A stretch of 64,000 bases of DNA from an uncultured Bacillota bacterium (GTDB lineage Bacteria; Sysuimicrobiota; Sysuimicrobiia; Sysuimicrobiales; Segetimicrobiaceae): positions 704,001-768,000 of the forward strand of contig CAWDRG010000017.1 in the NCBI GenBank assembly GCA_963804645.1, read 5' to 3'. Under the pieces are notes generated by a model. The model searched no databases. It was not told the origin of the DNA and saw only the letters and a program-made list of their open reading frames with translations. This document shows, one piece after another, positions 1,683 to 33,222 of the stretch (positions are counted from its first letter, which is position 1; each line of letters starts with the position of its first letter). The translations under genes were made by a program, and so were the position numbers.

Positions 1683-2564
1683 GCGCGAGCGCGGGTTCTT
1701 GCGCCGCCTCACCGGCAACGCGTCCGGGTGGGTCACCTGCGCCCTGCTCGTGGTCCTGTTTGTCGCGGGGTTCGGCGCGTCGTGGATCGTCCCGTACAAT
1801 CCGTCCGCGCAGGACCTCGTCGTCGCGCTCCACACGCCGTCGCTCAACCCCGCGAACGGACACGTCCATCTCCTCGGCACGGACAAGCTCGGGCGCGACG
1901 TGCTGAGCCGCGTCCTCGTGGGGCTGCGCGTCTCGCTTCGGTGGCGTTTGCCGTGGTGCCGCTCTCCGCCGCCGTAGGCGTCGCGATGGGTGTCCTCAGC
2001 GGCTACATGGGCGGGCACGCCGATCTGGCACTGATGCGGGTCGTGGACGCACAGATGGCGATCCCCGCCCTGCTGCTGATGATCGCCGTGATCGCCGCGC
2101 TCGGCCCGGGGCTCGCGCAGATCGTCGGCGTGCTGGCGATCGCGGGATGGCCGATCTACGCCCGCGTCATCCGGAGCGAGGTCATCGGACTGCGCCAGCG
2201 AGAGTTCGTGGCCGCCGCGACGGCGGTCGGGGTCCCCAATAGGCGGATCATGATCCGCCACGTGGCGCCGAACGTGCTCCCGACCGTGATCGTCCTGGCC
2301 ACGCTGCAGCTGCCGATCGTGATCGTCTCCGAGGCCGCCCTGAGCTTCCTCGGGCTGGGCATCCAGCCCCCGACGCCGAGCCTCGGCCAAATGCTTGCCG
2401 AGGCTCAGGACGTGATCTGGCAGGCATGGTGGCTCCCCGTGATTCCGGGGGCCATGATCAGCATCGTCGTCCTGGTCTTCAACCTCCTGGGAGACCGCGT
2501 CCGCGACATTCTGGATCCCCGGCTGCGCGGCATCGCGTACACCCAACCGCGGCTGGGCCGGTAG
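1636..2564 (+). CDS. Peptide/nickel ABC transporter permease (DppC/OppC type), one frameshift near 1940
   Basis: HLLGTDKLGRDVLSR, EFVAAATAVG, RHVAPN, EAALSFLGLG, FNLLGDRVRDILDPR. Start position is uncertain. Confidence 0.88.
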
Positions 2565-3060
2565 TCACCGGGCGCACGCCGTCAGGCGCGGCGGGAAGCC
2601 CCCGCCGGCGGGCGCCGCCCGGCCGCCGCGGCGCCGCAAACACTACCCGCGCCCCCAGCCGGAGTCCGAGATCTTCCCCCGTCACCGCGCGCGCCACAGC
2701 GATCACAATGTTCATGTGATTCGGCATGTGCGTGAGATCGTATCCCGCCACGCGGCCGAGGGTCCGGCGTCCGACCCGCACCTCGTCACCGACGAGCACC
2801 ACGCCGCCGTTCCGGAACTCGACGAAACCGAGGTACGCGATCCGGTTGACGGTCGCGCCGGGACGCGCGCCCGGCTCGTCGGTCGCGATCAATTCGTGGA
2901 CCGCGTGCGCGACGACGGCTCGAGACGGCTGCGGGATCAGCTCGAGATGCCGCTTGGCGACATACCCCCGCAGCACCACGACCAGGCTCCCGGACACCGG
3001 TACCCTGTCCGCGTACGCGTCGGCCCCGATCAACTTCGCGCCGTACGGATCCCGAGACAC
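2479..3060 (-). CDS. DUF6917-like protein
   Basis: LELIPQPSRAV..HELI.TDE...PG..VNRIAYLGFVEF..GGV...GD...GYDLTHMPNHMNI pattern. The low-complexity tail overlapping dppC may be a frameshift artefact. Confidence 0.65.
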   Translation of the reverse strand: MSRDPYGAKLIGADAYADRVPVSGSLVVVLRGYVAKRHLELIPQPSRAVVAHAVHELIATDEPGARPGATVNRIAYLGFVEFRNGGVVLVGDEVRVGRRTLGRVAGYDLTHMPNHMNIVIAVARAVTGEDLGLRLGARVVFAAPRRPGGARRRGLPAAPDGVRPVTTGPAAVGCTRCRAAGDPECRGRGLPGG

Positions 3061-3087: not shown

Positions 3088-4062
3088 TTACACGGCGAGG
3101 ACGGTCCCGATTCCGCGCGCCTGCGCCCGCCGGTACAACTCCACCGCCGTCGCGAGATCCTCTAAGGCGACCCCGAGATTGAACACCAAGATCCGGTCGT
3201 CGGCCCGCCGCCGCCCTGGCGCGCGGCCCGCCACCACATGTCCCAGCTCCGCGCTGACTTCGCGCACCGCGGTAAAAAACCCGTCCCGCTTCATGTCGTC
3301 GATCTGCTGCACATCGTCCGCGACGATCGTGTCCATCGCCGAGACCGCCCCGGGCGCCCAGAACGAGTCGCGGTTCACGGACACGCCGAGCGCGCCGGGC
3401 GCGAGCCACTCGAGCTCGATCGGGTGGGGGCCGCGGATGTTGGGACCCGCGGTGATGATAATGTCGGCGCCGATCACCGCCTCGCGCGGGTCAGCCGCCC
3501 GCCGCGCGTCGAGGCCGAGCCGCGTCGACGCGTCGGCGACCAGCCTGTCCGCCGCCTCCGGGCTGACGTCGTAGGCTCGCACCGCGGCCACCGTAGGAAC
3601 CGCGAGCCGCAGCGCCTCCAGGTTGCTGCGCCCCTGCACCCCACACCCGAGAATCGCCACCGTGCTCGCCCCCTCACGGGCGAGCGCCCGGGCCGCGAGT
3701 CCGGTCGCCGCGCCCGTCCGCGCGGCCGTAATCCACGCGGAGTTCATGATCGCCAGCGGCGCTCCCGTCTCGGCATCGCTGAGGATGTACAACCCCTGGA
3801 CGTACGGGAGCCCGCGCGCCGGCGCACCGGGATTGCCGCTGTTCCATTTGCACCCGGCGGCCCCAAGCGCCGGAATGTAGCAGGGCATCGCACAGAAGAA
3901 CGAGTCCGCGCTGCGGACGATCCAACACTTCCCCGGCATCGTGGCACGCCCGGCCGCGTGCTCCGAGAACGCATGCCGCAGCAGCTCGATGATGTCCGGC
4001 ACGCCGAGATTCAACGACTCGAGATCGCCGCGGTTCAGGTACAGCACGGTCTGATCGGACAT
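3088..4062 (-). CDS. Ornithine cyclodeaminase/mu-crystallin family protein
   Basis: ETGAPLA...WITAARTGAA, Rossmann GCGVQG, ELGHVVAG..PGR, NLGVALEDLA. Confidence 0.9.
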   Translation of the reverse strand: MSDQTVLYLNRGDLESLNLGVPDIIELLRHAFSEHAAGRATMPGKCWIVRSADSFFCAMPCYIPALGAAGCKWNSGNPGAPARGLPYVQGLYILSDAETGAPLAIMNSAWITAARTGAATGLAARALAREGASTVAILGCGVQGRSNLEALRLAVPTVAAVRAYDVSPEAADRLVADASTRLGLDARRAADPREAVIGADIIITAGPNIRGPHPIELEWLAPGALGVSVNRDSFWAPGAVSAMDTIVADDVQQIDDMKRDGFFTAVREVSAELGHVVAGRAPGRRRADDRILVFNLGVALEDLATAVELYRRAQARGIGTVLAV

Positions 4063-4092: not shown

Positions 4093-5469
4093 TCAGGCGA
4101 GCGGCTTGCCGTCGCCCGGGCACCGGACGGCCTTCGACGCGCAGCGTACGGTCCAGGCCCATGCTCGCCAGCACCGTGCCGATGTCCGCCGGCGTCTTGC
4201 GCCGCAGCGGGATCTCGTCCATCGTGGCGAGGCGGAGCGCAAGGCGCGCGACCCGGATCGCCTCCATCTCGATGGTCTGCCCCGAGACTTTGTCGAGCGT
4301 GTCCATCGCCGTATGGCCGAAGCCCCGGAAGGCGGCGGCCGACTGGCCGGCCGGCTCCGAAAACAGAATGCCCGCGGGGACGCCGTACGCCGTGAACGAG
4401 TAGTGATCGGAGTGCAGCCAGAGCGACGCCTCGTCGGACACCGGGCCCTCGAACAGGCCGCCGAGAAAGTCGAGCGCGTCCGGCCAAGCCGGCACGTAGA
4501 GGGTGGCGTTCGCGCTTCGGGCGGAACCGTCGAGATTGAGCATGAACCGCATCGGATCGGCTTTGTGGCGTTCGACGAAGTAGCGCGACCCATGGAGTCC
4601 CATCTCTTCGCCGGCAAACGCCACGAACCGAAGTGTCCGCTTGAACTGGTCCTTGTAGCGGCCGAGCATCCGCGCCGTCTCCATCAACACCGCGCTTCCG
4701 GCGCCGTTGTCCATCGCGCCCTGCCCGATGTCGTGCCCGTCGTAGTGCGCCCCGAGGACAACGATCTCCTCCGGACTCCGCGTGCCCTTGAAGTCCGCGA
4801 CCACATTGTTCGACGTCACGGAATGATTCTCGTTGGTCGAGGTCACGCGCAGCCGAACGGGGCCGCGTTTCGCGAGCCGCTGCAGCGCGTAGCCCTCTTC
4901 GTACGAGACCGCGATAGCCGGAATCTCGCAGTAATATCCAAACCGGCCGGATCCGGTCTCCGCCAGACCGCCCGGCGACGCGCGCATCCAGATGAAGCCG
5001 ACCGCGCCGGCATCCAGCGCCCGGCCCAGTTTTTCGGTCCGGTGCATGCGGAGCGACGACGAACGTGGGGACGCCGTGTTCGCCATCACGATGGCGCCCT
5101 TCATCGCCTCCCGCTTCTCGTCGTACGTCTTGGGGTCGCCGGGGCCCACGTCGACCAGCGGGCCTTCCACGTCTCCCGGCGGACAATACGGAAGGGCGAT
5201 GCAGTTGATCGGCGCGTTCGATCGGGCTCGTCACCGACGCGCTGGGTTTCCTTGCGGGTCCACCCCTTCGTGCTGAAGCTCTCGATCACCGCCGAATCCG
5301 CCCCGGTCGCGGCGAACCGGTCGCGGATGAACTCCGCGGCGGCGTGTTCCTGCGGCGTCCCGAGGAACCGCGGCCCAAATCGATCCACCAAGTCCTCGAC
5401 GTACGCGCGGCCCGCGGTTGAGAAGTACAACTCCCCGACGATCTCTCGATCCATCTCCTCAAGCGTCAC
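4093..5469 (-). CDS. M28 peptidase with PA domain, canonical subtype A (copy A1), frameshifted
   Basis: GAHYD..GAMDNGAG, FAGEEMG, NLDG, SDH, GHTAMD. GTG start after GGAGGAGG. Shifts near 5235, 5210 and 4116 when aligned to the intact paralogs. Confidence 0.85.
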
Positions 5470-5685
5470 GATCGTGACCTCCTCCGTGAGCGTGGCGGCA
5501 TCCGACCAGGCGGCGGCATGCCATCTGGGCCTCCCACATCCATTGCCCACCGTCGACCGACACCGTGTGGCCCACCACGGTGTCCTCGTTCCGCCTCCAG
5601 ACCAGCACGCGCGCTCGGTCCACGGCGCGCCGGTAGCCCCCGCGGCCGTCGCTGCGTCGAACGGTCGTGGGGTCCTCCGGTGTGC

Positions 5686-7386
5686 TCAGGTCGCGGCCGG
5701 CTCCGCGGACGCGGCCGGCGCCTGTGCGAGAAACCGTTCAACGCGCCGGCAGGCCTGACGCAGCGCGTGCGTCACCTCGTTACGCGCCCGAGCAAGATCA
5801 ACCGTCAGCAACTTGGCCGCGTCCGAGTCCGGATCCAGCGCCGCGAGACGCTGCGCGGGCTGGAGGGTCGGCAGAAAACCGCTGGCGCCGCCGGGGTCGT
5901 GCGCAAAGCGCCCCGTGATCTGGTAGGTCGGCGCGATCAGAATGCGTCCAAGATCGTGCACACAGGCGTTCGCGGCCTTGGTAACCTCCCAGTCGGCCCC
6001 GGCACCCGAGCGCACTGAGTTCAAGCGCCCGCACAGCGCCTCGAGCTCTCCCGCGGCCTGGAGCGCCGGCGTCAGGTCGAACTTCCCGCCGCACCGCTGG
6101 GCCAGCGTCTCGAGGTGCGTGCGGATGTCTGCGGCGGTGGCCGCGTAGTCGAGCGGCACGACGGGGTCTGTCAGCAGCCGGCCGAGGGCCAGGTAGTAGA
6201 TGGTGGCGTCCCGGACGAGGCGCGCCGGATCAATCTTGTCGACCGTGTCGTCCACCGTGTGAATCCACCACCCGAAGCTTCGGTCCGGCTGCCGCGACAC
6301 TTCGCCGAACATCGACGGGACGCCGACGCCCCAGAACGATTCGTCGCTCGTACGCCGCATGCGCTCGACCGGTGCCGTACCGCCGGCCGCGGTGGCGAGC
6401 GCCCACCCCGCCAGCGCGCTCAGTTCGACCATGGCGGTCGTGACGATGAGGTCGGCGCCCATGGCGCCGACGACATCGATATTGACGTGCGCCACGCAGT
6501 GCTGCTCGAGATCGAACCAGCAGTTGTCGGCGTACCAGGCGGACCCCGAGTACCGCCCGTGCGAGTGTCCGGACCAAAAGGCCAGCCGCAGGTCCCGCCG
6601 CAGGTCGGCGCGCCGCCCCGCGAACAACCGCATCATCTCCAACATGACCGCGTTCGCGCTCGCGTTGTCCATGGCGCCTTTGTGCCAGCTGTCGATGTGG
6701 CCCGAGAACAGCACGTACTTGCCCGGATCGGAATCGGGATGTCCGGCATGCAGGTCGCCGATGACGATCGGCGTCCGCGTCCACCGCGTGTCGACGTGGG
6801 CGCGCAGGTGCACGCGCACCGGCCCCGCGGCGCACAGGCCGCGCAGGCTCTCCCCGTCGGCCTGCGCCACGGAGAGCATCGGCGTGTGGGGCAGCGCGGC
6901 CACGGTGTGTTCCCCGGGACTGCCCCACACCGACGAGCAGATCATCTCCCCGATCACCGGGCCGCTCGTAAAGATCGCCGCGGCGACGCCGGCGCGGTCC
7001 ACGTTCGCGGCCGTGTCGGGCGAGGCCTTGGCGCCGACGAGCACGATCCGCCCGGAGAGCCCGGCCAGCGACGCGGGGCGCGCATCCGGGACGTAGACTA
7101 GGTCCCCCTCGAGGCCCGCCTCGGGTGTCGACGCGGCCATCGCGAGCGTGACGCACGGCACCGCCCGGCGGGTCGGAGCCAGCACCGTCAGGGACGCCTC
7201 CCCGGGCAGACTGATATAGGCGTCGTGCATCAAGATCGTGGCGCTGCAGCCCACCGCCTTCAGCTGCGCTTCGACGTAGCGCGCCGCCGCCAACTCCTCG
7301 GGGCTGCCCGCCGAGCGCGTCCAGCGGGTAATGGCCCGCACGTCGCTCATCATCCGATCGGCCGAGACTGCGTCTGCGTGAGCCAT
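5686..7386 (-). CDS. M28-family PA-domain hydrolase, non-canonical subtype B (copy B1)
   Basis: SGHIDSW..GAMDN, FWSGHSHGRYSGS in place of GEE, NID, WWIHTVDD. 566 aa with a long C-terminal extension. Confidence 0.85.
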   Translation of the reverse strand: MAHADAVSADRMMSDVRAITRWTRSAGSPEELAAARYVEAQLKAVGCSATILMHDAYISLPGEASLTVLAPTRRAVPCVTLAMAASTPEAGLEGDLVYVPDARPASLAGLSGRIVLVGAKASPDTAANVDRAGVAAAIFTSGPVIGEMICSSVWGSPGEHTVAALPHTPMLSVAQADGESLRGLCAAGPVRVHLRAHVDTRWTRTPIVIGDLHAGHPDSDPGKYVLFSGHIDSWHKGAMDNASANAVMLEMMRLFAGRRADLRRDLRLAFWSGHSHGRYSGSAWYADNCWFDLEQHCVAHVNIDVVGAMGADLIVTTAMVELSALAGWALATAAGGTAPVERMRRTSDESFWGVGVPSMFGEVSRQPDRSFGWWIHTVDDTVDKIDPARLVRDATIYYLALGRLLTDPVVPLDYAATAADIRTHLETLAQRCGGKFDLTPALQAAGELEALCGRLNSVRSGAGADWEVTKAANACVHDLGRILIAPTYQITGRFAHDPGGASGFLPTLQPAQRLAALDPDSDAAKLLTVDLARARNEVTHALRQACRRVERFLAQAPAASAEPAAT

Positions 7387-7448
7387 CTCGTCTCCCCGCC
7401 CCCGTCCTGCCCGTGTGCGCGGTGCGGCCGAACGGCCGCGGTGGCGCC

Positions 7449-8816
7449 CTACCGCTCGCCCGGCAGCGCGCGCTGCTCGTAGCGGAGCACTTCGTCGAGG
7501 CCCATCCCCTCGAGCACCGCGCGCACGTGCGCCGGCGTTTGGCGCGCGAGCGACAGCGTGTCGAGGCTCAAAAGGCGCAGCGCCAGCCGCGCGACCCGGC
7601 TCGCCTCCATCTCGATCGCCTCACCGGAGACTTTGTCGAGCGTGTCCATGGCGGTGTGTCCATAGCCGCGCACGGCCGCGGCCGACGAGCCGGCCGGCTG
7701 ATCCGACATCACGATGGCGGCGGGAATGCCCTGTGCGCTGAAGTAGTAGTGATCCGAGTGCAGCCACAGCGCCGCATCGTCGTCGACCGGACCGTCGTAC
7801 AGGCCGCCGACAAAGTCCACGGCGTCGGGGAACGCCGGCGCCATGTGGAGCCGCGCGGTCAGGCTGCGGGCGGCGCCGTCCAGATTCAACATGAACCGGA
7901 TCGGCTCCGCGCCGTGCCTGGTCGCGTATTCGTGCGATCCGTGCAGCCCCAACTCCTCGCCGGCAAAGGCGACGAACCGCAGGGTGCGCTGGAACTGGGA
8001 GCGGTACGGGCGGAGCACTCGCGCCACCTCCATCAACACCGCCACCCCGGCGCCGTTGTCCATGGCGCCCTGGCCGATATCGTGCCCGTCGTAGTGGGCC
8101 CCCAGCACGATCAGTTCCTCGGGGTGCGTGCGCCCGCGAAACTCTGCGACCACATTCTGGGTCGACACCATGCGGTTCTCGTTTGTGGAGTGAATCGCCA
8201 CGACGGCGGGCCCACGCGCGGACAGGCGCTGCAGCGCGTACCCATCCTCGTACGACACCGCGATCGCCGGGATCTCGCAAAACCGGCCGATCTGCGCCGC
8301 CCCGGTCTCCGGGAGGCCGCCGGGCAGGCCGCGCATCCAGATGAATCCGACCGCCCCGGCGTCGAGCGCTCTGCCCAGCTTCTCGGTCCGGTGCATGCGG
8401 GAGCCCCGCGACCTCGGCGTGACCGTGGTCGCCATTACGATCGCGCCCTTCATGGCCCCACGGAGCTCGGCATACGTCGCGGGGTCACCGGCGCCAACGT
8501 CCAGAAGCGGACCTTCTACGTCGCCCGTCGGGCAGTACGGCAGCGCGATGCAGTTGACGGCGCGCTCCACGGGCCGGCGCACGAGCAAGCGCGTCTCCTT
8601 GCGGATCCATCCCGGGCAGGTGAAGGATTCAAGCGCGGCGGAGTCTGCGCCGTACCCGGCGAACCGGTCGCGGATGAACTCCGCCGCCGGACGCTCCTGC
8701 GAGCTTCCCAGAAACCGCGACCCGAAGCGATCGACGAGCTCTTCGAGAAACCGCTTGCCCTCGGACGAGAAGTAGAGATCCCCGACGATCGCGCGATCCA
8801 TCTCGGCAAGCGTCAA
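7449..8816 (-). CDS. M28 peptidase with PA domain, subtype A (copy A2)
   Basis: GAHYDGHDIGQGAMDNGAG, FAGEELG, NLDG, SDH, GHTAMD. TTG start after GGGAGG. Confidence 0.9.
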   Translation of the reverse strand: MTLAEMDRAIVGDLYFSSEGKRFLEELVDRFGSRFLGSSQERPAAEFIRDRFAGYGADSAALESFTCPGWIRKETRLLVRRPVERAVNCIALPYCPTGDVEGPLLDVGAGDPATYAELRGAMKGAIVMATTVTPRSRGSRMHRTEKLGRALDAGAVGFIWMRGLPGGLPETGAAQIGRFCEIPAIAVSYEDGYALQRLSARGPAVVAIHSTNENRMVSTQNVVAEFRGRTHPEELIVLGAHYDGHDIGQGAMDNGAGVAVLMEVARVLRPYRSQFQRTLRFVAFAGEELGLHGSHEYATRHGAEPIRFMLNLDGAARSLTARLHMAPAFPDAVDFVGGLYDGPVDDDAALWLHSDHYYFSAQGIPAAIVMSDQPAGSSAAAVRGYGHTAMDTLDKVSGEAIEMEASRVARLALRLLSLDTLSLARQTPAHVRAVLEGMGLDEVLRYEQRALPGER

Positions 8817-8897
8817 CCCGCGTCCTCCCAACCCCCTGAGTTCCGCACGACCACGAGCCGGCGCAGCGTACGCCTGTCGCGATCTGCCGGCGACGGC

Positions 8898-9200
8898 CTA
8901 CAACATCAACTGCAGGGCCTCGCGCCCCGTCATCCCGGGCCGCACCCCCAGGGCCTGAGCCGCTGCGGTGCAGTCCCGGACCTTGGCGTCGAGAATGTCC
9001 TCGATTTCGCGCACCCCGGTCACGCGCGCTCCGACGACTTGCCGCTCGGGGTGCATCGCGTCGAGGATTGTCACATCGAAGAGGCCGCACCCGACGAAGC
9101 CCTTGGCGGTGCTGATGGTGAGATCCCGCGCCTTCGGCAGCTCCACCATCACCCCGATGGCCACCCCGCCCGCGAGCGCCACCGGCCGCACATCGATCAC
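8898..9200 (-). CDS. YunC/DUF1805 family protein
   Basis: 100 aa with KGFVGCG.FDV..L....ARVTGV..IED.LDA.V...T..A..LGV..GMTGREAL. GTGA overlap with the upstream gene. Confidence 0.8.
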   Translation of the reverse strand: MIDVRPVALAGGVAIGVMVELPKARDLTISTAKGFVGCGLFDVTILDAMHPERQVVGARVTGVREIEDILDAKVRDCTAAAQALGVRPGMTGREALQLML

Positions 9201-10687
9201 GAACGCACCGCCTCCTTGCGTGCGGTCGCGATGCCGGAGTACTTGCCGATGATCTCAAGCGAGCGGAACAGCGCGCGCACCATCGCGCGCGCTTCGGGCT
9301 CCAGGAGCGCGCCCTCCTCGTCGCTCGTGCCGAGGCCGGGCGAGATGAAGATGTTCGCGTCGTAGCCGATCGTCGGCACCAAGCCCGCCGCCTTCATCGC
9401 GTTCTGCACGATGTTCGTGCCGGAGTACATGTCCTCGATGCTGAAGATCGGGAACCCGGGACCGGCGCCGTCCCACGTCCGCTCGTAGTTGATCTCGATC
9501 GCCATCGAGTTGACCGACTTGGTGATCAGCCACCCGTCCCCGTACTGCCGCAGGTCGCTCTTCTTGAACTCCTCGAGCGTGATCTCGTGGAGCGTGTCGA
9601 GCGGGTCGAGCATGACCTCTTTCTGCTCGAGCAGCACGCGCATCGCCGCGAGGCCGCCAAGCAGCGCCTCCTTGCCGGGATCCACCGTCACGTACGCCGC
9701 CTTGCCGTACGAGCCGGTCGTGCCCCACCGGTCGCCGTGGATGCCGAGCGCCCGCCGGATCGGCACCATCACGTCCTCGCGGCCGATGATCAGCCCCACC
9801 GTCGGGGCGCCCGCGGCCTTATCCATGCTGTAGGTCATGATGTCGGCACCCGTGGCGCGCAGATCCGTGCCGAGAAACGGGGTGCCCCAGGCGTTGTCGG
9901 TCACATAGGGCACGTTGTACTGGTGCGCCAGCGCGGCGATCTTCTGCTGCAGCAGCGGGGTGCCGGCGTGATCCTTCGCCCCGTAGCCGTACCCCGGCGT
10001 ATCGTATCCGAGCGACGCGAATCCGACGAGCGAGCCGACGTGCGCCGCGGCATGCTGGGCCAGGACGGCGGCGGTGCCGCTGACATCGGTCCCGGTCAGC
10101 AGCGGCACGGGATGGTACTTGATCCCGTGGCACGGGTAGCGGGCCCCGACCATCGGCACGATCACGGTGTCGAGGTTCTCGAGCCGCTTCCCATAGAATC
10201 CCAACTCCCCCGCGGTGGCGCCGCGGTCCGCGTACAAGTCCTTGTACCGCGGCGGGAACGGACGCCCGTACCCGGCCTGGTGATGCATGTGCCGCTCGTA
10301 CGGCGCGATGTACCGCGCACGGTAGTTGTCGCCGCGGCCCGTGAACGGCGGGCTGAACAGGACGTCGAAGCTGACCCACAGCGCGGCCTCGCACGTCGCG
10401 ATCATCGCCCCGTCGTAGTCGTCGCCGTAATAGCTCTTCACGATCCGGCGGACGTCCGCCGCGAGCGCGGAGTTTTGGATCACCTTCCGCGATCCGGCGT
10501 CCATCGCGCTGGTCACCGCGCGCGTCAGCAGCCCGTGACATCCCGACACGGCGCCCGTGAATCCGAGGTTGCCGCGCATCTCGTCGGTGACGCCGGCGTC
10601 GGTCGCCGCCTTCCGGACGTCCGCGTAGATCTTGTCGGCGTTCTTGGCCAGGTTGTCGTAAAGGTCATAACGGAACGTTGTGCTCAC
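9197..10687 (-). CDS. Fold-type I PLP-dependent enzyme, SelA-like
   Basis: VPYVTDNAWG (PLP Asp) and YSMDKAAGAPTVGLIIG (Schiff-base Lys, resembling SelA FSGDKxxGGPQxGIIxG). 496 aa; RBS GGAGGG. Confidence 0.7.
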   Translation of the reverse strand: MSTTFRYDLYDNLAKNADKIYADVRKAATDAGVTDEMRGNLGFTGAVSGCHGLLTRAVTSAMDAGSRKVIQNSALAADVRRIVKSYYGDDYDGAMIATCEAALWVSFDVLFSPPFTGRGDNYRARYIAPYERHMHHQAGYGRPFPPRYKDLYADRGATAGELGFYGKRLENLDTVIVPMVGARYPCHGIKYHPVPLLTGTDVSGTAAVLAQHAAAHVGSLVGFASLGYDTPGYGYGAKDHAGTPLLQQKIAALAHQYNVPYVTDNAWGTPFLGTDLRATGADIMTYSMDKAAGAPTVGLIIGREDVMVPIRRALGIHGDRWGTTGSYGKAAYVTVDPGKEALLGGLAAMRVLLEQKEVMLDPLDTLHEITLEEFKKSDLRQYGDGWLITKSVNSMAIEINYERTWDGAGPGFPIFSIEDMYSGTNIVQNAMKAAGLVPTIGYDANIFISPGLGTSDEEGALLEPEARAMVRALFRSLEIIGKYSGIATARKEAVRS

Positions 10688-10834
10688 CGGTCATCCCTCC
10701 GAAACCGTCGCTGGGCGCGGCCAGGCGGCCGACGCGCGGAACACCCGTTCGGGGCCTTTCACACTCTGCTGCGCTGCATTACTTGTCTGGACGCGGGCGG
10801 CGTTCCTGCGTCGGCGCCCCCGTTCCCGCGGCCG

Positions 10835-11986
10835 CTAGAACAGGTTGGCCTCCTTGTGCAGCTCGCCCGCGAACCGTCCCAGCCGGAACGGGGCGGGGTC
10901 GAGCGAGGTCGCCGCCCCGTCCAGAATCTCCTCGCTGATCAGCCTGCCGATCGCGGGCGCGTGCATGAACCCCTTGCCGTTGTCGCCGCACGCCAGGACC
11001 AGGCCGTCCACTCCCTCGACGCGGCCCAGGATCGGGTGGTAGTCGGGCGTGAGCGCGCGCAGCCCGACGTAGGTGCGCCGCAGCGGCGCGTGCATCAGGC
11101 TGGGGATCCGGCGTGCGGCGGCGGATAGCACGCGCTCGACCCCGTCCATGTCGACGTCGAGGCCGAACCCCGGGCGGGTATCCTTGTCCGTGCCGCCGAG
11201 CAGCAGATCGCCGCGGCCGGTGCGGTGCATGTTGAAGCCGGTCTCCGTGTCGGTCGTCAGGGGGAGCTCCACGTCGAGCTCGGGGACCCGGGCGACGACG
11301 CAGACCTGGCGGCGGAAGGGCTGCGCCGGCACGTCCACGCCGGCGAGCCGCGCGATCTCGGCCGAGTAGGGGCCGGCCGCGATGACCACGGTGCCGGCCT
11401 CGAACGCGTCCGTCGGCGTGCGGACCCCGGTGATCCGGCCCCCGGTCGTCCGGAAGCCGACGACCTCCTGCTCGAACCGGATCTCCGCGCCCCACGTCCG
11501 GGCCCGGGCCGAATACCCCTGCACGGCGGCCGCGGGCTCCGCGGACCCGTCCTCGGCGCAGTACGCCGCGCCGATCAGGTCGTCGGTGCGCAACCCTGGG
11601 ACCAACTGGGCCGCGTCGCGCGGGCCGATGATCTCGCTCGGCACCCCGAACGAGCGCTGGAGCGCCACGCCGTCGCGCAGGCTCTCGAGGATGCTCGGGG
11701 TCGCCGTCAGAAACAGATACCCGTTTTGACGGAAATGGACGGAATATCCGGTCGCGTCCTCGAAGGCGCGGTACTCGGGAATGCTGAGCTGGCTCAACCG
11801 GATGTTCGCCTCGGTCGTAAACTGCGCGCGGATGCCGCCGGCCGCCTTGGCCGTGGATCCGGTCCCCAGCATCGACTCGCGCTCGAGCAGCGTCACCCGC
11901 AGGCCGCGATCCCGGCGCAGCAGATGGTAGGCGATGCTGCATCCCACCACGCCCCCGCCGATAATGACGACATCCGCTCGTTCCAC
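10835..11986 (-). CDS. FAD-dependent oxidoreductase, DAO/sarcosine oxidase beta-like
   Basis: DVVIIGGGVVG, GSTAKAAGGIR, GLRALTPDYHPILG, GKGFMHAPAIG. Confidence 0.92.
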   Translation of the reverse strand: MERADVVIIGGGVVGCSIAYHLLRRDRGLRVTLLERESMLGTGSTAKAAGGIRAQFTTEANIRLSQLSIPEYRAFEDATGYSVHFRQNGYLFLTATPSILESLRDGVALQRSFGVPSEIIGPRDAAQLVPGLRTDDLIGAAYCAEDGSAEPAAAVQGYSARARTWGAEIRFEQEVVGFRTTGGRITGVRTPTDAFEAGTVVIAAGPYSAEIARLAGVDVPAQPFRRQVCVVARVPELDVELPLTTDTETGFNMHRTGRGDLLLGGTDKDTRPGFGLDVDMDGVERVLSAAARRIPSLMHAPLRRTYVGLRALTPDYHPILGRVEGVDGLVLACGDNGKGFMHAPAIGRLISEEILDGAATSLDPAPFRLGRFAGELHKEANLF

Positions 11987-12069
11987 GTGACTCCCCCTCG
12001 CGATCTCAGATCTGCTGACGCGGCCGGGGTCCCCGCCGACGCGCGGCGCCCCGCCGCGGGTCGAGGCGC

Positions 12070-13176
12070 TCAGGAGGACGCCGAGCGCGCGCGCTGGCTC
12101 GCGTCGTGGCCCTCGTGGGGATACACGGCTTCGTTCAGCGCGCGCAGCTCCTCGATGTTCGCCGGGCCGCGCCCGCGCCGCCCCGCTTCGAGATCATGGA
12201 TGAGGTCGATCACCCGCTCGTTCAGCGGGGTCGCCAGCCCGTGCGCGCGGGCGACGTCGACCACAACGCCGAGCTGCGCGTCGATCTCGGTCGGGCGGTG
12301 CTTGATCACCATGTCGCGCCAGATCCCGTTGTGCGTGTTCAACGACTGCCGGTTCACGATGACGCGCTGGTCGAGGCAGCGGTGGATCGCCGCCCAGTCC
12401 CGGGGCGTCGTGAACCGCATCGCGTCGGCGTCGTACCCGCTGAAGCCGACGGACCGCACGCCCTCCGCGTCCGCCACGCGGACGATCTCGCCCGCCAGGT
12501 TCGCGAGCAGCGACCGGCTGCGGGGATCCGCAAACGCGTCTCCCATGCTGTCGTCGATCGTCGCGGTCGCGAACAGCATGGACACGTACCCGAGCTTGCC
12601 CCACAGATGCCCCCAGATGTTGTCCGTCAGCTGCGTATGCTCGAGAAACGCCTCCCGGAAGATCGCTCCGAGCCGCTCGAGCCGGTCCGTCATGCGTCCG
12701 TCGAGCTCGCCGAGATAGAGCTCGGCCCGGCTGGACAGCTTGATGCGCCCGGGGCCGAGGTAATCGGCCCCGAAGTTCACGAACGCCCCCATCGTGCGCT
12801 CCGCGCCGACCCGCTGCGCGATCTGGCGCTCGTTGAGGCCGTTCTGCAGCGACACGATCACGCCGCGGGCGTCCAGGAGGGGCGCCACCGCCTCGAGCGC
12901 CGCCGCGGTGTGGTGCGCCTTCACGGCCAGCAGCACCGTCTCGAGCGGACGCCCGTCGAGCGCGCCCGCCAGGCCGGCCGGCGTGACCGCGGGCACCCGC
13001 ACCCGAAACGTCGACTGCCCCTCGACGCTCAACCCGTCCCGCGCGATCGCCTCGACGTGCGGCAGCAGGCTGTCGACGAAGAGCACGTCGTGGCCGGCGC
13101 GGGCGAAGTGCGCGCCCACCGATCCGCCGATGCCGCCGGCGCCCACCACCACGAACCGACTTGGGGACCTCGCCAC
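12070..13176 (-). CDS. Ketopantoate reductase (ApbA/PanE)-like oxidoreductase, copy 1
   Basis: GAGGIG, LAVKA, SLQNG, LWGKL, RPTEID. GTG start after GGAGG. Confidence 0.88.
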   Translation of the reverse strand: MARSPSRFVVVGAGGIGGSVGAHFARAGHDVLFVDSLLPHVEAIARDGLSVEGQSTFRVRVPAVTPAGLAGALDGRPLETVLLAVKAHHTAAALEAVAPLLDARGVIVSLQNGLNERQIAQRVGAERTMGAFVNFGADYLGPGRIKLSSRAELYLGELDGRMTDRLERLGAIFREAFLEHTQLTDNIWGHLWGKLGYVSMLFATATIDDSMGDAFADPRSRSLLANLAGEIVRVADAEGVRSVGFSGYDADAMRFTTPRDWAAIHRCLDQRVIVNRQSLNTHNGIWRDMVIKHRPTEIDAQLGVVVDVARAHGLATPLNERVIDLIHDLEAGRRGRGPANIEELRALNEAVYPHEGHDASQRARSASS

Positions 13177-13290
13177 TCCCGAGACCTCCGCCCGCAGCGC
13201 ATTTCGCGGTCCACCGCACGCGCCGTCCATGCGGCCGCCGGCCGCCCGAACGGACCGCAGCCGTCGACACGGCGCTGGGGTGATCCGCTA

Positions 13291-13318
13291 CTTCCCCCCG
13301 CGCGGGGCGGTTCCCTCC
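13291..13318 (-). promoter_or_regulatory. Putative sigmaH-like promoter GGAGGG-N18-GAAG
   Basis: Intergenic, sense to PanE-like copy 1. Same geometry as five other sites in the window. Confidence 0.4.
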
Positions 13319-13340
13319 GCGTACGGCGCCCCGCCCCGGC

Positions 13341-14444
13341 TCACGCGGTGCCCGGATGGCCCCGCCGGCTCGCCGCGCGGTCGTCCGACGGATAGCACCG
13401 ATCGTTCAGGACCCGGAGCTCCTCAAGATTCGCGGGCTGCCGCACGCGCCGCCCCTCCTCGAGGTCGTGGATCACCTCGATCAGGCGGGCGTTCAAAGGC
13501 ACCGCCAGCCCGTGCGCCGCCGCGATCTCCGCGAGAAGGCCCAGATGCGCATCCACCTCGGTGCGCCGGTGCTTCATCGCCATGTCGCGCCACATGCCGC
13601 ACCGCGCGTTGATCGATGCGCGGTTCACGACCACGCGCCGGTCGAGGCTGCGGTGAATGGCCGCCCACTCCCGGGGCACGACAAACCGCATCGCGTCCGG
13701 GTCGTACCCGGCGAATCCTTCGCACCGCACGCCCTCGGCATCCGCCACGCGGACGACCTCCCCGGCGAGGTTCGCAAACAGCGCACGGTTGTCGAGGTCG
13801 GCAAACGCATCGCCCATCGTCTCGTCGGTCGTCGCATTCGCGAACAGCATCGACACGTACCCGAGCTTGCCCCACAGATGGCCCCAGATATTGCCGGTCA
13901 GCTGCGTGTGCTCAAGCACGGCCGTGCGGAAGATCGCCCCGAGCTGCTCGAGCCGGTCCGTGATGCGCCCGTCCAACTCCCCCAGGTACAGCTCGGCCCG
14001 GCTCGACATCAACACCCGGCCGGGCGCGAGATAGTCGGCGCCGAAGTTCACGAACGCGCCGATCGTGCGGTGGGCGCCGATCCGTTCGGCGATGAGGCGC
14101 TCGTTCAGCCCGTTCTGCATCGACACGACGACGCTGTGCGCGTCCAGCAGCGGCACGACCGGGCCGAGCGCCGCCGCCGTATCCTGCGCGTTGACCGCCA
14201 GAAGCACCGTCCGCGGGGCGCGCCCGGCCAGCACCGATGCCAGCGCGTCGGGGGTGGTGGCCGGCACGCGCACGTGAAAACTAGCCGCCCCCTCGACCGC
14301 GAGCCCGCCGACGGCGATCGCACGGACGTGATCGCGCACTCGGTCGACGAGGAGCACCTCGTATCCGGCGCGGGCCAGGTGCGCCCCGGTCACCCCGCCG
14401 ATGCCGCCGGCGCCGATCACGATGAACTGCGGCGCCACGGTCAC
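13341..14444 (-). CDS. Ketopantoate reductase-like oxidoreductase, copy 2
   Basis: GAGGIG, SMQNG, LWGKL, RRTEVD. Close paralog of copy 1. Confidence 0.88.
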   Translation of the reverse strand: MTVAPQFIVIGAGGIGGVTGAHLARAGYEVLLVDRVRDHVRAIAVGGLAVEGAASFHVRVPATTPDALASVLAGRAPRTVLLAVNAQDTAAALGPVVPLLDAHSVVVSMQNGLNERLIAERIGAHRTIGAFVNFGADYLAPGRVLMSSRAELYLGELDGRITDRLEQLGAIFRTAVLEHTQLTGNIWGHLWGKLGYVSMLFANATTDETMGDAFADLDNRALFANLAGEVVRVADAEGVRCEGFAGYDPDAMRFVVPREWAAIHRSLDRRVVVNRASINARCGMWRDMAMKHRRTEVDAHLGLLAEIAAAHGLAVPLNARLIEVIHDLEEGRRVRQPANLEELRVLNDRCYPSDDRAASRRGHPGTA

Positions 14445-14460
14445 GGCAGGCGCACCGTCC

Positions 14461-16155
14461 TCATGACGCCGCGCCCGCCAGGAAGGACTCCACGCGCCGG
14501 CACGCCCGGCGCAGCGCGTACACGAGCGCGTTGCGCGCCCGGACGAGATCCACGAGCAGCCGCTTCGCCTCGTCGGAGTCGGCGGCCGCCGCGGCGAGAC
14601 GCGGAACGGCGCCGAGCGTCGGCAGCCACGCCGGCGACAGCGCCCCGTCGTGCGCGAAGCGGCCGGCCCCCTGGTGAAGCGCCGGCACGAGCATGCGTCC
14701 CAGGTCGCGCAGGCACGCATTCACCGCGCGTGCGCGAGCGCCGCCGGATCCGGTCGCTGCCACGTCCGCGAGGCGCCTGCACCGCGCCTCGAGATCCGCC
14801 GCGGCCGCGAGGGCCGGGGAGAGATCGAACCTGCCGCCGCCCGCCTCCGCGAGAGACGCCAGGTGTTCGCGGACGGCGGCCGCGCACGATGCGTAGTCCA
14901 GCGGCAGCACGGGATCGGTCAGCAGGCGTTCGACGGCCGCGAGATAGATCTGCGTGTCCCGCACGAGCCGCGCGGCCTCCAGTTTGTCCGGCGTATCCTC
15001 GGCCGTGTGCAGCCACCACCCGAAGGTGCCGTCCGGCTGCCGCGAGACCTCGCCGAACAGCGACGGGACACCGATCCCCCAGAACGATTCGTCGTTGGAC
15101 CGGGACACCCGATCGACCGGGGCCCGCTCGCCGGTGGCCTCCACCATCGCCCACTCCGCCAGCGCGGCCGCCTCTCCGGTGGCCCGCGTGACCAGACGGT
15201 CGGCGCCGGCGGCCCCGATCACGTCGACGTTCACGTGCAGCACGCAGTGCTGCTCCAGATCGAACCAGTGGTGGTCCGCGTACCACGCCGACGAGGAATA
15301 CCCGCCGTGCGAGTGCCCGGACCAAAACGCGACGCGGAGCCCGCGCCGCAGCGACGACCGGCCGGATGCGAGCAGCCGCGCGATCTCGAGCATCGCCGCG
15401 TTGGCGCCCGCGTTGTCCATCGCCCCCCGGTACCAGGCGTCGAGATGGCCGGAGAGCAGCACGTACGCGCCGGGCTCCGCCTCGGGGTGACCCGGCGCCA
15501 AATCACCGATAACGATGGGGGTGCGCGTCCAGCCGGTGTGCACCGCCGCGGCGGCATGGATCTCGACCCGGCCCTCCGCGCACAGGGCTGCGAGCGCCGC
15601 ACCGTCCTCGCGCGCGACCGAAAGGAGCGGGAGACCGACCAGGTCGTGCACGGTGCGCTCCGACGGATTGCCCCACACGGGGGATACGCACATCTCCTGG
15701 GCGAGGCGCCCGCCGACGAACACGACGCCGCGGGCTCCGGCAGCCGCCGCGTTGCACACCGCCTGCTTCGCCGCCCGCTCGGACGGACTCGCCCGGTCGA
15801 CCAGCACGTACCGTCCGGCGGCGCCCGCCGCGGCCAGCTCCGCCGGGCTCCCGGTGCCGCCGTCGACGATCTCGGCCGAGTCGCCCTCCGGCCCGGTGGA
15901 CGCGCCCATCGAATGCGTGATGCACGGCACCTCGCGCGCCGCCGGCGCGACCACCCGCAGGCGCGCCTCGCCCGGCACGCTGATGTACGCGTCGTGCGTC
16001 AGCGTCCTCGCGGCCAGCCCGGCGGACGCCAACCGGCCCTCGACGTAGGCGGCGGCGCGCCGCTCGTCCTCCGTCCCCGCCTCGCGCCGCCATCTGGCGA
16101 TCGCGCGCGCCTCGTCCATCAACCGCCCGGCCGATACCTGATCGAGGCTGCTCAC
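14461..16155 (-). CDS. M28-family PA-domain hydrolase, non-canonical subtype B (copy B2)
   Basis: SGHLDAW..GAMDN, FWSGHSHGGYSSS, NVD, WWLHTAED. Colinear paralog of 5686-7386. Confidence 0.85.
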   Translation of the reverse strand: MSSLDQVSAGRLMDEARAIARWRREAGTEDERRAAAYVEGRLASAGLAARTLTHDAYISVPGEARLRVVAPAAREVPCITHSMGASTGPEGDSAEIVDGGTGSPAELAAAGAAGRYVLVDRASPSERAAKQAVCNAAAAGARGVVFVGGRLAQEMCVSPVWGNPSERTVHDLVGLPLLSVAREDGAALAALCAEGRVEIHAAAAVHTGWTRTPIVIGDLAPGHPEAEPGAYVLLSGHLDAWYRGAMDNAGANAAMLEIARLLASGRSSLRRGLRVAFWSGHSHGGYSSSAWYADHHWFDLEQHCVLHVNVDVIGAAGADRLVTRATGEAAALAEWAMVEATGERAPVDRVSRSNDESFWGIGVPSLFGEVSRQPDGTFGWWLHTAEDTPDKLEAARLVRDTQIYLAAVERLLTDPVLPLDYASCAAAVREHLASLAEAGGGRFDLSPALAAAADLEARCRRLADVAATGSGGARARAVNACLRDLGRMLVPALHQGAGRFAHDGALSPAWLPTLGAVPRLAAAAADSDEAKRLLVDLVRARNALVYALRRACRRVESFLAGAAS

Positions 16156-16180
16156 ACCGCGCTCCTCCCGGCCCCGGAGC

Positions 16181-17551
16181 CTACCCCTCCCCCGGCAGCC
16201 TGCGGCCTTCGTACCGGAGGACGCGGTCCAGTTCCCGCACGGCCAGCACGGCGGCGATCTCCTGCGGTGTCTTGCGCCGCATCGGGATCTCGTCGACGGT
16301 CACCAGCCGGAAGGCGAGCCGCGCGACGCGGCTCGCCTCCAGCTCGATTGCCCGCCCGGACACCTTGTCCAGGGTGTCCATCGGGGTGTGCCCAAACCCT
16401 CGCACCGCGGCCGCGGAGGCGCCGGGCGGCTGGTCGGACATCACGATCGCTCCGGGGAATCCCTGCGCCGTGAACGAGTAGTGGTCGGAGTGCAGCCACA
16501 GCGACGCCTCGTAGGGATCGTCGACCACGTCCCCCTCGTACAGCCCCCGCAGAAACTCCAGGCCCTCCGGCCACGCCGGAAAGTGGATCGTGGCGCTCAT
16601 GCTGCGCGCGGATCCGTCCAGATTCAGCATGAACCGGATCGACTCCGCGCGGTGCCGCTCCGCGTGGTGGCGGGAGCCGTGCAGTCCCGTCTCCTCGCCG
16701 GAGAACGCCACGAACCGGAGGGTGCGGAGGAACTCGCCGCGATACGCGCGGAGCGTGCGCGCCACTTCCATGAGCACGGACAGGCCGGCGCCGTTGTCCA
16801 TCGCGCCCTGGCCGATGTCGTGGGCGTCGTAATGCGCGCCGAGGACGATCACGTCCTCCGGCCAGCGCGTGCCCTTGAACTCCGCCACCAGATTGTGGGA
16901 CGTCACGGGGCAGTTTTGGTTCGCGGATGTGATCCGCAGCCGCGCGGGCCCGCGCCCGGCCAACCGCTGGAGTTCGTACCCGTGCTCGTAGGACACCGCG
17001 ACCGCCGGGGCCTCCGCGGCGAACCCCAACCGCGTGGGGCCGGCCTCCGGCAGACCGCCGGGCACGCCCCGCATCCAGATGAAGCCGACGGCACCCGCGT
17101 CGAACGCCCGCCCGACCTTCTCGAGCAGATTCATCCGGACGCGCGCGAACCGCGGAATGGCCGTCGTCGCCATGACGATCGCGTCCCGCATCGCGGGCCG
17201 CAGCGCCTCAAACGTGCGCGGATCGCCGGGCCCGACGTCGACCAGCGGGCCTTCCACCACGCCCGGCGGAGAGTACGGCAGCGCGATGCAAGGGATGTCG
17301 CGGACGACCGGGGCCACGGCCGCGAGGTGGGTCTCGCCGCGCGTCCATCCGGGACAGGTAAACGTCTCGGTCGCCACCGAGTCGGCGCCGAGGCCTTCGA
17401 AGCGCTCCCGGATGAACGCCGCCGCCGCGTGCTCCTGGGGGCTGCCGTGAAACCGGGGGCCGAAGCGGTCCACGAGCTCCTCGACGAACGCCAGTCCGCC
17501 AGTGGAGAAGTGCAGGGCGCCCACGATCTCACGGTCGATCCGCTCAAGCAT
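16181..17551 (-). CDS. M28 peptidase with PA domain, subtype A (copy A3)
   Basis: GAHYDAHDIGQGAMDNGAG, FSGEETG, NLDG, SDH, GHTPMD. Confidence 0.9.
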   Translation of the reverse strand: MLERIDREIVGALHFSTGGLAFVEELVDRFGPRFHGSPQEHAAAAFIRERFEGLGADSVATETFTCPGWTRGETHLAAVAPVVRDIPCIALPYSPPGVVEGPLVDVGPGDPRTFEALRPAMRDAIVMATTAIPRFARVRMNLLEKVGRAFDAGAVGFIWMRGVPGGLPEAGPTRLGFAAEAPAVAVSYEHGYELQRLAGRGPARLRITSANQNCPVTSHNLVAEFKGTRWPEDVIVLGAHYDAHDIGQGAMDNGAGLSVLMEVARTLRAYRGEFLRTLRFVAFSGEETGLHGSRHHAERHRAESIRFMLNLDGSARSMSATIHFPAWPEGLEFLRGLYEGDVVDDPYEASLWLHSDHYSFTAQGFPGAIVMSDQPPGASAAAVRGFGHTPMDTLDKVSGRAIELEASRVARLAFRLVTVDEIPMRRKTPQEIAAVLAVRELDRVLRYEGRRLPGEG

Positions 17552-19318: not shown

Positions 19319-19474
19319 AGCCCCTAACAGTACCCCGTCGCGCGGCGCGCACCGGTGCGTCACGTGCGCCCGCCGCACACCAACGGGTTGATCCCGCGTA
19401 GGGAGTACCGTGCCGAGCACCGCATCCAGGTCGATGATGAACCGGACCGACGTCTGTCGCGTCTCGGCGGCCGC

Positions 19475-20461
19475 ATGAGCGAATCCCAGACGCTGGTGCT
19501 GTCGGCGGCCGACGTCCACGCGTGCCTCGATCCCGCGGCGGTCCCCGCGACGGTCGAAGCGACGCTCCGCGCGCTGGCGGAGGGCGCCGCGGACGCCGCC
19601 CCCCGCTCGTTTCTGCCCGTGGGAGACGGCGCCTTCATCGCGATGCCTGGGCACCTCCGCAGTCGACGGATCGCCGGCGTCAAGTGGGCCTCCACGCTCA
19701 ACGGCAATCCGGAGCGAGGGCTGCCGAAGGTCCGCGCGGCCGTCCTGCTCTGCGACGCGGAGACCGGACAGCTCGGCGCGATCCTCGACGCCAGGGAGAT
19801 CACCGCGCTCAGGACCGGAGCGCTCGCGGCGGTCGCCGCGAAATACTGCGCCCGCACCGGGGCCGCCGTCGCGGCGATCATCGGCTTCGGCGCGGTGGGC
19901 AAGGGCGCCCTGCGGGCGCTCGTCGAGATGTGCTCTCTGCGGGAGATCCGGGTATTCGGGCCGCGGCGCGAGGCGGTGGCCGCCGATGCCGCGGAGGCGG
20001 CCGCCGCCTCGGGGGTCCCGGTGGTACCGGCGGCGTCGATTCGGGACGCCGTCCGCGACGCCGACATCGTGGTGACGGCCGCCGGGCTCCGCGCGGACGC
20101 CCCGTTTCTCGAGGACGCCTGGATCCGCCCGGGGACGGTCGTGTGCGGCCTCGGGTCGTACCAGGAGGTCGACGGCGCACTGGTGACGCGCGCCGACAAG
20201 CTCGTGGTCGACGACTGGGACGCCAGCGCGCACCGGGGGCAGTTCGCTCCGCTGGTCGCCGCGGGGCGCCTGCGGCGGGAAGACGTGTACGCGGAACTGC
20301 CGGAGATCGTCTGCGGAGCGAAGCGCGGCCGATCGTCCGAGCGCGAGATCATCGTCGCGAGCCTGCTCGGGCGCGGGGTGTTCGATCTCGCGATCGCCGC
20401 CGATATCGTCGAGCAGGCGCGGCGCCTTGGCGTCGGGCAGCACGTCGGCATCGAATCGTGA
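19475..20461 (+). CDS. Ornithine cyclodeaminase/mu-crystallin family protein (second copy)
   Basis: GVKW....GNPERGLP, ETG, ITALRTGA, GFGAVG, ELPEIV.GAKRGR, GRGVFDLA. Confidence 0.9.
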   Translation: MSESQTLVLSAADVHACLDPAAVPATVEATLRALAEGAADAAPRSFLPVGDGAFIAMPGHLRSRRIAGVKWASTLNGNPERGLPKVRAAVLLCDAETGQLGAILDAREITALRTGALAAVAAKYCARTGAAVAAIIGFGAVGKGALRALVEMCSLREIRVFGPRREAVAADAAEAAAASGVPVVPAASIRDAVRDADIVVTAAGLRADAPFLEDAWIRPGTVVCGLGSYQEVDGALVTRADKLVVDDWDASAHRGQFAPLVAAGRLRREDVYAELPEIVCGAKRGRSSEREIIVASLLGRGVFDLAIAADIVEQARRLGVGQHVGIES

Positions 20462-20468
20462 CCGGCAC

Positions 20469-22829: not shown

Positions 22830-22871
22830 GCGCTGACCCCTTCGCGCCGTCGCCGATCGCGCGGCGCGGCC

Positions 22872-25618: not shown

Positions 25619-25773
25619 CGCCCTGGACGCTCTCCTCTCGCGCGCAACTGGGCACGCGCGCAGCCCTCTTGCGTGATGCGCTGCGCGTCGATGCCGTGAT
25701 GGGCACACGAAGCAACCGCCGGCGTGGGTGCGATGGTCCCGAACCCCGGGGACGTACGCGAAACATCCCGCCG

Positions 25774-25801
25774 ATTCCACACCCCGGCCGCGATCTCCTC
25801 C
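25774..25801 (-). promoter_or_regulatory. Putative sigmaH-like promoter GGAGGA-N18-GAAT
   Basis: Closest match to the sigmaH consensus in the window; in the divergent intergenic region upstream of PanE-like copy 3. Confidence 0.5.
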
Positions 25802-33123: not shown

Positions 33124-33192
33124 CGGGCGTACCCCCCAGTTCAAGTTGCGACACGTCATGGCGGCGGGCGAGGCGCCGCCAGACTAGACGGT

Positions 33193-33222
33193 GCCGGGGG
33201 CGCACGCGGGTGCGCCCCCGGC
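33193..33222. terminator. 13-bp perfect hairpin after the SBP gene (mRNA stabiliser or attenuator)
   Basis: GCCGGGGGCGCAC-gcgg-GTGCGCCCCCGGC; no U-tract. Confidence 0.55.

Follow-up and report, generated by a model that had tools for sequence, protein, structure and literature searches.

In a 64,000-nucleotide stretch of DNA from an uncultured Bacillota bacterium (contig CAWDRG010000017.1, positions 704,001 to 768,000; the whole stretch is called the window below), a gene for a canonical M28 aminopeptidase (A1, A2) is twice followed directly by a gene for a second M28 protein with an unusual active site (B1, B2). The question raised by this locus is whether A and B work together or whether B is an enzyme in its own right. 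A preliminary description of the window, made from the letters alone, proposed that B either uses different chemistry or is a non-catalytic partner in a cytoplasmic A/B complex. Both pairs were confirmed at the positions listed in Table 1, and a third A copy (A3) was also found. Overall, the comparisons below suggest that B is probably a standalone cytoplasmic metallohydrolase, with a His as the acid/base, acting on imported small peptides or amides.

The active site of B

Pfam Peptidase_M28 (PF04389) matches both types of protein above its gathering cut-off of 21.3 bits (A1, 123; A2, 114; B1, 69.2; B2, 69 bits). In B1, H274-S275 of the motif WSGHSHG falls on the EE of WDAEEFG in GCPII and GCPIII when aligned with HMMER, and on the EE of AGEELG in A when aligned with MAFFT. 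Therefore, H274 stands at the position of the general-base Glu and Ser275 at that of the metal-ligand Glu. The remaining four of the five M28 ligands (His, Asp, Glu, Asp, His) are kept as H230, D240, D304 and H376, and the motifs GHIDSW, GAMDN, HVNID and WWIHT are retained. The alignments thus agree with the motifs first read from B, namely HxD, GAMDN, NxD and the last His, with WSGHSHG where A has AGEExG.

An exhaustive phmmer search with B1 over 1.84 billion representatives gave at least 461 clusters (50% identity) at E <= 1e-30. WSGHSHG is present in 117 of 122 sequences (the 120 best relatives plus B1 and B2), with WSGHSQG in two, WFGHSHG in one, and no match in two. The site was further aligned in 152 sequences, which are the best 150 of the 461 clusters (30-57% identity) plus B1 and B2. 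In these, H230 and H274 are His in 152/152 and H376 is His in 149/152; D240 is Asp in 147 and Cys in 5, D304 is Asp in 148 and Glu in 4, and D232 is Asp in 142 and Cys in 10. Position 275 is Ser in 133, Glu in 13, Thr in 4, Phe in 1 and Ala in 1, while position 276 is His in 82, Gln in 29, Thr in 22 and other residues in 19. Glu stands at 275 in each of the five Cys240 sequences, and distant relatives from Clostridiales (29-32% identity) have GHEIA together with SAICN.

The replacement of Asp by Cys or Glu at ligand positions fits continued metal binding. Since the second His (H276) is variable, the change probably does not serve to create a new His-x-His metal site. By this alignment, the trait that defines the clade is a His at the general-base position, with the ligand Glu usually exchanged for a small residue. 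The altered site of B is evidently under selection, as judged from its conservation, and B is a conserved non-canonical M28 protein rather than a degenerate copy. Different chemistry, by a His base or an altered metal site, is therefore the leading reading of the two offered for B, given the invariant His and the four other ligand positions that are kept.

A distant B-like clade was observed in three records labelled Clostridiales (L027, 7367-13498; L028, 6520-13450; L037, 6387-12947). Its members have GHE[IV]A, in which a Glu is retained after the His, and their bridging Asp is exchanged for Cys (SAICN). The gene order is conserved and consists of a sigma-54 activator, one or two amidinotransferase/DDAH-like genes, the B-like gene, and an NhaC-type transporter.

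Overall structure of B and its place among known proteins

The AlphaFold2 model of B1, based on a 54-sequence alignment, has a mean pLDDT of 95.5 and a pTM of 0.94, with helices at residues 387-555. In a Foldseek search of the PDB it matches NAALADase L (4twe_A; E 2.4e-29, TMq 0.78), GCPII and GCPIII (TMq up to 0.81), and TfR1 (TMq 0.75-0.79). The matches span about 700 alignment columns, that is all three domains (protease-like, apical PA, and C-terminal helical) of MEROPS M28B, to which GCPII and NAALADase L belong. Furthermore, the B-family profile aligns to NAALADase L (4twe) over profile positions 220-549, the helical domain included. Therefore, the C-terminal helical domain is homologous and not merely alike in shape. 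By sequence, the top PDB match of B is a canonical PA-domain aminopeptidase, 2ek8 (E 1.1e-20 with B1; 5.1e-35 with the B profile); no close solved relative was found in the PDB, in which the best profile match reaches 124 bits.

In agreement with the absence of a signal peptide in the preliminary description, no hydrophobic stretch was found in the first 60 residues of A1, A2, B1, and B2 (12-residue Kyte-Doolittle maximum 0.77-1.54; hydropathy only, with no dedicated predictor run). The B-family consensus begins at the same residue as B1. M28B proteins are type II membrane or extracellular proteins, whereas B has no N-terminal hydrophobic segment by the same hydropathy measure, and from the lack of a signal sequence it is predicted to be cytoplasmic.

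B shares the whole three-domain architecture with GCPII and NAALADase L and has the His, bridging Asp, Asp, and His ligand positions in common with them. The catalytic Glu of GCPII (presumably numbered E424) corresponds to His in B, and its ligand Glu (presumably E425) to Ser. B further differs from GCPII in its predicted cytoplasmic location without membrane anchor or signal peptide, in its length (about 565 versus about 750 residues), in an identity of only about 16%, and in giving no match to Pfam TFR_dimer. The PA-domain M28 aminopeptidases, such as those of Aneurinibacillus AM-1 (2ek8) and Shewanella (3iib) and YwaD (6hc6), are closest to B by sequence and have the protease and PA domains in common with it; unlike B, they have the canonical EE and lack the C-terminal helical domain. 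Most described members of this group are secreted.

Since TfR1 has the same three-domain fold, B could be thought of as a non-catalytic binding or scaffold protein of the TfR kind, that is, a pseudoenzyme. B lacks both the catalytic Glu and a ligand Glu, and the E424A and E424M forms of GCPII are called inactive in PDB titles. TfR, however, is a receptor without catalytic activity that has lost its metal ligands, whereas B keeps four of the five together with the invariant His; these positions are conserved in 147-152 of the 152 sequences, and the exchanges that occur are compatible with metal. Up to 10 paralogs are present per genome, and they lie inside catabolic and importer operons. A pseudoenzyme is thus quite improbable, and the non-catalytic role that had been offered for B is unlikely because the metal ligands are retained.

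B1 and B2 fall within a large and so far uncharacterised group of bacterial cytoplasmic M28 enzymes that share the complete architecture of GCPII, NAALADase L, and TfR. No specific NCBIfam model was found for B (best match 23.5 bits versus a cut-off of 382), and in the ESM Atlas and the source annotations its relatives have only generic names of the type 'M28 family peptidase'. A literature search, with subscription papers and MEROPS outside its scope, found no description of a bacterial clade with the GCPII fold and this site. The fold family itself is already known; what would be new, from the sequences compared, is a natural His-variant clade of GCPII-like proteins.

Relationship between A and B

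The A proteins keep H246, D248, D258, E292, E293, D318, and H392, which do not vary among the 49 family members aligned, so that every canonical M28 residue (HxD, D, EE, D, H) is present as had been stated. The PA domain is found by Pfam in the A proteins (4.1e-06 and 8.1e-05), and A1 matches the Shewanella aminopeptidase 3iib with an E of 1.1e-27. A1, A2, and A3 are PA-domain M28 aminopeptidases of the ordinary kind, located in the cytoplasm. Pairwise identity is 56% between B1 and B2, 65% between A1 and A2, 70% between A3 and A1, and 24-27% between A and B.

Within the window the case for a partnership rests on gene layout. All three A genes of this genome flank B genes, and the gaps within the A-B pairs are short (25 and 62 nt). 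In genome G004, of the same genus, both pairs are present and the order of solute-binding protein, A2, and B2 is conserved; A1 and B1 are also adjacent in a different genomic context in G004 and in locus L001. Three more metagenome contigs may hold both A and B, since the same longest-contig values (19238, 26408, and 13977) occur in both match lists. It could therefore be supposed that A and B form a heteromeric enzyme in this genus only.

The distribution of the two genes argues otherwise. The genome itself (G000) has seven B paralogs and three A genes, all three A in this window, and five of the seven B paralogs have no A nearby; the neighbours of those five are a family-5 solute-binding protein (SBP5) gene, two M20 peptidases with a 2-hydroxyacid dehydrogenase, a run of SBP5, permease, permease, and PGA_cap, and a luciferase-like monooxygenase. 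Among 41 genomes (G000 and 40 relatives; presence at E <= 1e-40), B occurs in 33, with 1-10 matches each, and A in five; G000 and G004, of one genus, are the only ones in which the two adjoin. In five further members of that genus (G001, G002, G003, G005, and G006), B is present at 53-55% identity and A was not found. In a phylum sample of 94 genomes A is present in 10 (E <= 1e-60). No B was found beside the eight A loci from genomes other than G000 and G004 (55-59% identity, in other families; six of the eight with 400 nt or more of downstream sequence), nor beside any of 80 metagenomic A loci (34-69% identity; at least 1.5 kb downstream in 52 and upstream in 49). Conversely, no A was found beside the 40 B loci of relatives, and of 40 loci fetched with B1 from other genomes, 31 encode B-family proteins and one of these, L001, has an adjoining A (B 85% and A 91% identical). 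The identities in L001 are the same as those of G004:C23, so that it is not independent evidence.

In addition, proteins of the GCPII type form homodimers by way of the helical domain, which is absent from A. A complex prediction of B1 (residues 4-552) with A1 (12-460), run with alignments and without controls, gave a score of 0.00 versus a mark of 0.32 and was used neither for nor against binding. A heteromeric A-B enzyme limited to this genus is very unlikely. The A-B module does exist, but in one lineage only; neither B nor A depends on the other, and co-occurrence and adjacency do not extend across lineages. The survey of GHSH homologs and their neighbours that had been suggested did reveal a conserved non-canonical family, but the linkage to A is limited to one lineage, and the absence of linkage elsewhere was the very outcome named as telling against the complex. 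The A/B complex or 'system' as proposed is not supported and adds no new kind of machinery.

Gene neighbourhood of B

In 13 of the 31 B loci (Methylomirabilota, Rokubacteria, and Binatia), the next gene after B encodes an SBP_bac_5 protein, and two permease genes follow it wherever Pfam was run; an ApbA-type reductase lies upstream of B in seven. In the 40 B loci of relatives, the genes within 5 kb of B include SBP5 (21/40), permeases (19/40), either of the two (24/40), a second B paralog, mostly on the opposite strand (9/40), ApbA (8/40), the enolase superfamily (MR_MLE, 7/40), PGA_cap (3/40), and M20 (2/40). In the genome of the window, five of the seven B paralogs are within 5 kb of importer genes, versus a genome background of 27%. 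Importer genes are genuinely, though modestly, enriched around B, as would suit a cytoplasmic enzyme handling imported small peptides or peptide-like compounds.

Several observations were made on these neighbours. The genome shows a very large expansion of peptide-type ATP-binding cassette (ABC) importers. Paired B paralogs, about 52% and about 35% identical to B1, are found in opposite orientation next to an SBP5-permease-permease operon in the nine loci with a second copy; examples are L142 (4971-8362), L146 (5001-8359), L148 (5001-8387), L149, L153, L155, and G000:C15:106675-111877. Given the dimerisation of GCPII-type proteins by the helical domain, B paralogs could conceivably pair as heterodimers. 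Genes for PGA_cap (CapA-like) proteins are met repeatedly next to B or SBP5 operons, at 25932-27023 (+) in the window, at 7459-8571 in L044, and in L174-L176, and a gamma-glutamyltranspeptidase gene follows a second SBP5 gene of the window (31396-34858, -); these neighbours hint at gamma-glutamyl substrates as one possibility. An MR_MLE gene stands 1.5-2 kb from one group of B paralogs, often with SBP5 on the other side (L139, L144, L145, L151, L154, and L041, 5426-6667). The enolase superfamily includes dipeptide epimerases and N-acylamino-acid racemases.

Proposed function of B

The mechanism regarded as most likely for B can be described as follows. The metal centre would be retained but remodelled, with H230, D240, D304, and H376 kept, the Glu ligand changed to Ser275, and the catalytic Glu to His274. 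One metal site (H230/D240/D304) would be intact and occupied, and the second weakened or re-ligated. His274 may take the acid/base (proton shuttle) role of the lost Glu, or it may help to bind the second metal. B would then be an active metallohydrolase (exopeptidase, dipeptidase, or amidohydrolase) that works alone or as a GCPII-like homodimer, and its substrates would be small peptides or peptide-like amides that enter through Dpp/Opp-type ABC importers. An A gene may, in this genus, have come to lie upstream of a B gene, after which the A-B module was duplicated; A and B probably share a substrate stream, with sequential trimming of one imported peptide, rather than form an obligate complex.

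A His at this position can support catalysis, for which there are two precedents. Bacillus subtilis DppA (M55) has a natural His base, His115; like B it carries His at the acid/base position of a co-catalytic metallo-aminopeptidase, whereas its fold is another one. In the engineered E151H form of the Aeromonas/Vibrio aminopeptidase the His is also at the acid/base position; this is a laboratory mutant in which the Glu ligand is kept, whereas B is natural and widespread and its ligand is changed too. The title of a 2005 paper by Bzymek speaks of a 'functional E151H' aminopeptidase.

Four points weigh against this account of B. The E151H enzyme is reportedly roughly 2000-fold (over 1000-fold) slower than the wild type; if so, a His base may be a poor replacement unless the pocket co-evolved. 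H276 is found in just over half of the aligned sequences, so that the 'HSH' triad is not the conserved unit. The 5.3-Mb genome has about 112 SBP5-like and about 158 Dpp/Opp-type permease-like genes (merged tblastn hits); proximity to B is therefore less specific than it appears, and paralogs and related genomes are not independent samples. Finally, the adjacency of A and B, kept in two contexts of one genus, leaves room for a lineage-specific functional tie.

It is also worth considering that B has a mononuclear or otherwise remodelled site and catalyses something different from peptide hydrolysis: it could be a cyclase, a transferase, or an amidohydrolase acting on non-peptide amides (ureido, opine-like, or other), or it could use a non-zinc metal. 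In 139/152 sequences one metal site is without its Glu ligand, the other site being intact. Glutamine cyclotransferases are weak matches to the B profile, and glutaminyl cyclase offers a precedent within the M28 fold, with a single metal and non-hydrolytic chemistry; unlike B, it has no PA or helical domain, its Glu-Glu pair is intact, and its metal sits in the other site. The neighbours of B are often not peptidases (in the window, ApbA-type reductases, DAO oxidases, ornithine cyclodeaminase, and a pyridoxal phosphate (PLP) enzyme; in relatives, the ApbA and enolase-superfamily genes counted above), the distant His-Glu/Cys clade lies between amidinotransferase/DDAH-like genes and an NhaC-type transporter, and the solute-binding protein of the window also resembles nickel and opine-metallophore binders. 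However, the dominant conserved neighbours are Dpp/Opp-type importers, of which the usual cargo is peptides, other exopeptidases (M20, M42, and A) are nearby, the fold and the four ligands match those of hydrolases, and nothing direct points to another reaction. Such a different reaction is accordingly held to be unlikely.

Hydrolysis of imported peptides or amides with a His as acid/base remains the preferred reading of B. A more far-reaching form of it is put forward tentatively, as doubtful: the B clade may be a distinct catalytic class in the MH clan, in which the catalytic Glu has given way to an invariant His and the second metal site has been lost or rebuilt. With up to 10 paralogs per genome, it would have diversified as the cytoplasmic partner of Dpp/Opp-type importers, acting on non-standard amides (D-residue, gamma-linked, N-acyl, ureido, or opine-like), with a metal need or a pH or leaving-group chemistry unlike that of canonical M28 enzymes.

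GCPII (PSMA), the mechanism of which rests on Glu424, has been studied intensively as a target for drugs and imaging. If the proposed function is correct, a widespread bacterial clade with GCPII architecture and a natural Glu-to-His and Glu-to-Ser site would be a ready-made test of the flexibility of co-catalytic M28 enzymes, and several hundred sequence clusters now labelled 'M28 family peptidase' would gain a function. The B family is the main M28 type in this phylum, present in 33 of the 41 genomes at 1-10 copies each, and, tied to the very large set of peptide-type ABC importers, B probably matters for peptide use by these soil and sediment bacteria.

Organisation of the locus and assembly quality

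The G+C content of the window is about 70%. The genes of Table 1 form one long run on the minus strand; frames were picked by third-position G+C (GC3) and domains were assigned from Pfam and NCBIfam. The open reading frames (ORFs) at 10779-11942, 1407-2546, and 4106-5758 were rejected by GC3 as wrong-frame or antisense, the first in favour of the DAO gene. A Shine-Dalgarno-like GGAGG precedes the starts of A1, A2, B1, and B2. The ORF of A1 extends over 7449-8831 (460 aa), and the likely start is a TTG at 8816, preceded by GGGAGG, which agrees with the coordinate in the preliminary description. For the solute-binding protein that opens the run, the top NCBIfam match is GsiB-like (200 bits), under the cut-off of that model.

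Table 1. Genes of the minus-strand run in the window and sites of the B1 motifs (positions are those of the window).
Feature	Position	Strand	Remarks
Family-5 solute-binding protein (Dpp/Opp/Nik type)	17672..~19300	-	First operon gene; Pfam SBP_bac_5 9.4e-85; start approximate
A2, canonical PA-domain M28 aminopeptidase	16181..17551	-	456 aa; GEETG at 16685-16699; without signal peptide (hydropathy)
B2, His-variant GCPII-like M28	14461..16155	-	564 aa; GHSHG at 15304-15318
ApbA/PanE-family 2-oxoacid reductase paralog	13341..~14444	-	Pfam ApbA and ApbA_C; start approximate
Second ApbA/PanE-family reductase	12070..13230	-	Pfam, NCBIfam
DAO-family FAD oxidoreductase	10835..11986	-	Pfam DAO 3e-77; frame by GC3
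PLP fold-type-I enzyme	9197..10687	-	Weak SelA/DgaE-like and Aminotran_5 matches
DUF1805 protein	8898..9200	-	Pfam 4.5e-19
A1, canonical PA-domain M28 aminopeptidase	7449..8816	-	GEELG at 7947-7961
B1, His-variant GCPII-like M28	5686..7386	-	566 aa; Pfam M28, alignments, model
B1 motif GHIDSW	6685-6702
B1 motif GAMDN	6664-6678
B1 residues H274-S275-H276	6559-6567
B1 motif HVNID	6475-6489
B1 motif WWIHT	6256-6270
A3, third canonical A copy	~4109..5469	-	Frameshifted near 5191-5240
Ornithine cyclodeaminase/mu-crystallin family enzyme	3088..4062	-	Downstream of A3; Pfam 2e-52; NCBIfam
DUF6917 protein	2479..3060	-	Pfam/NCBIfam

In this assembly, A3 has one frameshift, and the stop is missing from its expected place. 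A metagenome contig (L059) of 95% identical DNA carries an intact A3 of 452 aa, and 38 gap openings separate it from the window across 5.6 kb. Other genes of the window are also split by frameshifts, namely a Dpp-type permease (1089-1682, +) and a thiamine pyrophosphate enzyme (22579-24510, -). Because the copy on L059 is intact and these other genes are split, the break in A3 is an assembly indel error or a strain difference and not decay, and A3 as a pseudogene was set aside. The assembly probably carries indel errors.

Within a 25-kb part of the window there are two ornithine cyclodeaminase/mu-crystallin, two DAO flavoprotein, and three ApbA-type reductase genes (3088-4062, 10835-14444, 19355-21710, and 24536-25780). 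This set suggests the catabolism of imino, D-, or opine-like amino acids freed from imported compounds. The DUF1805 gene overlaps by 4 nt the end of the gene for the 496-aa PLP enzyme (together 8898-10687, -), and the two look like an uncharacterised pair within the operon.

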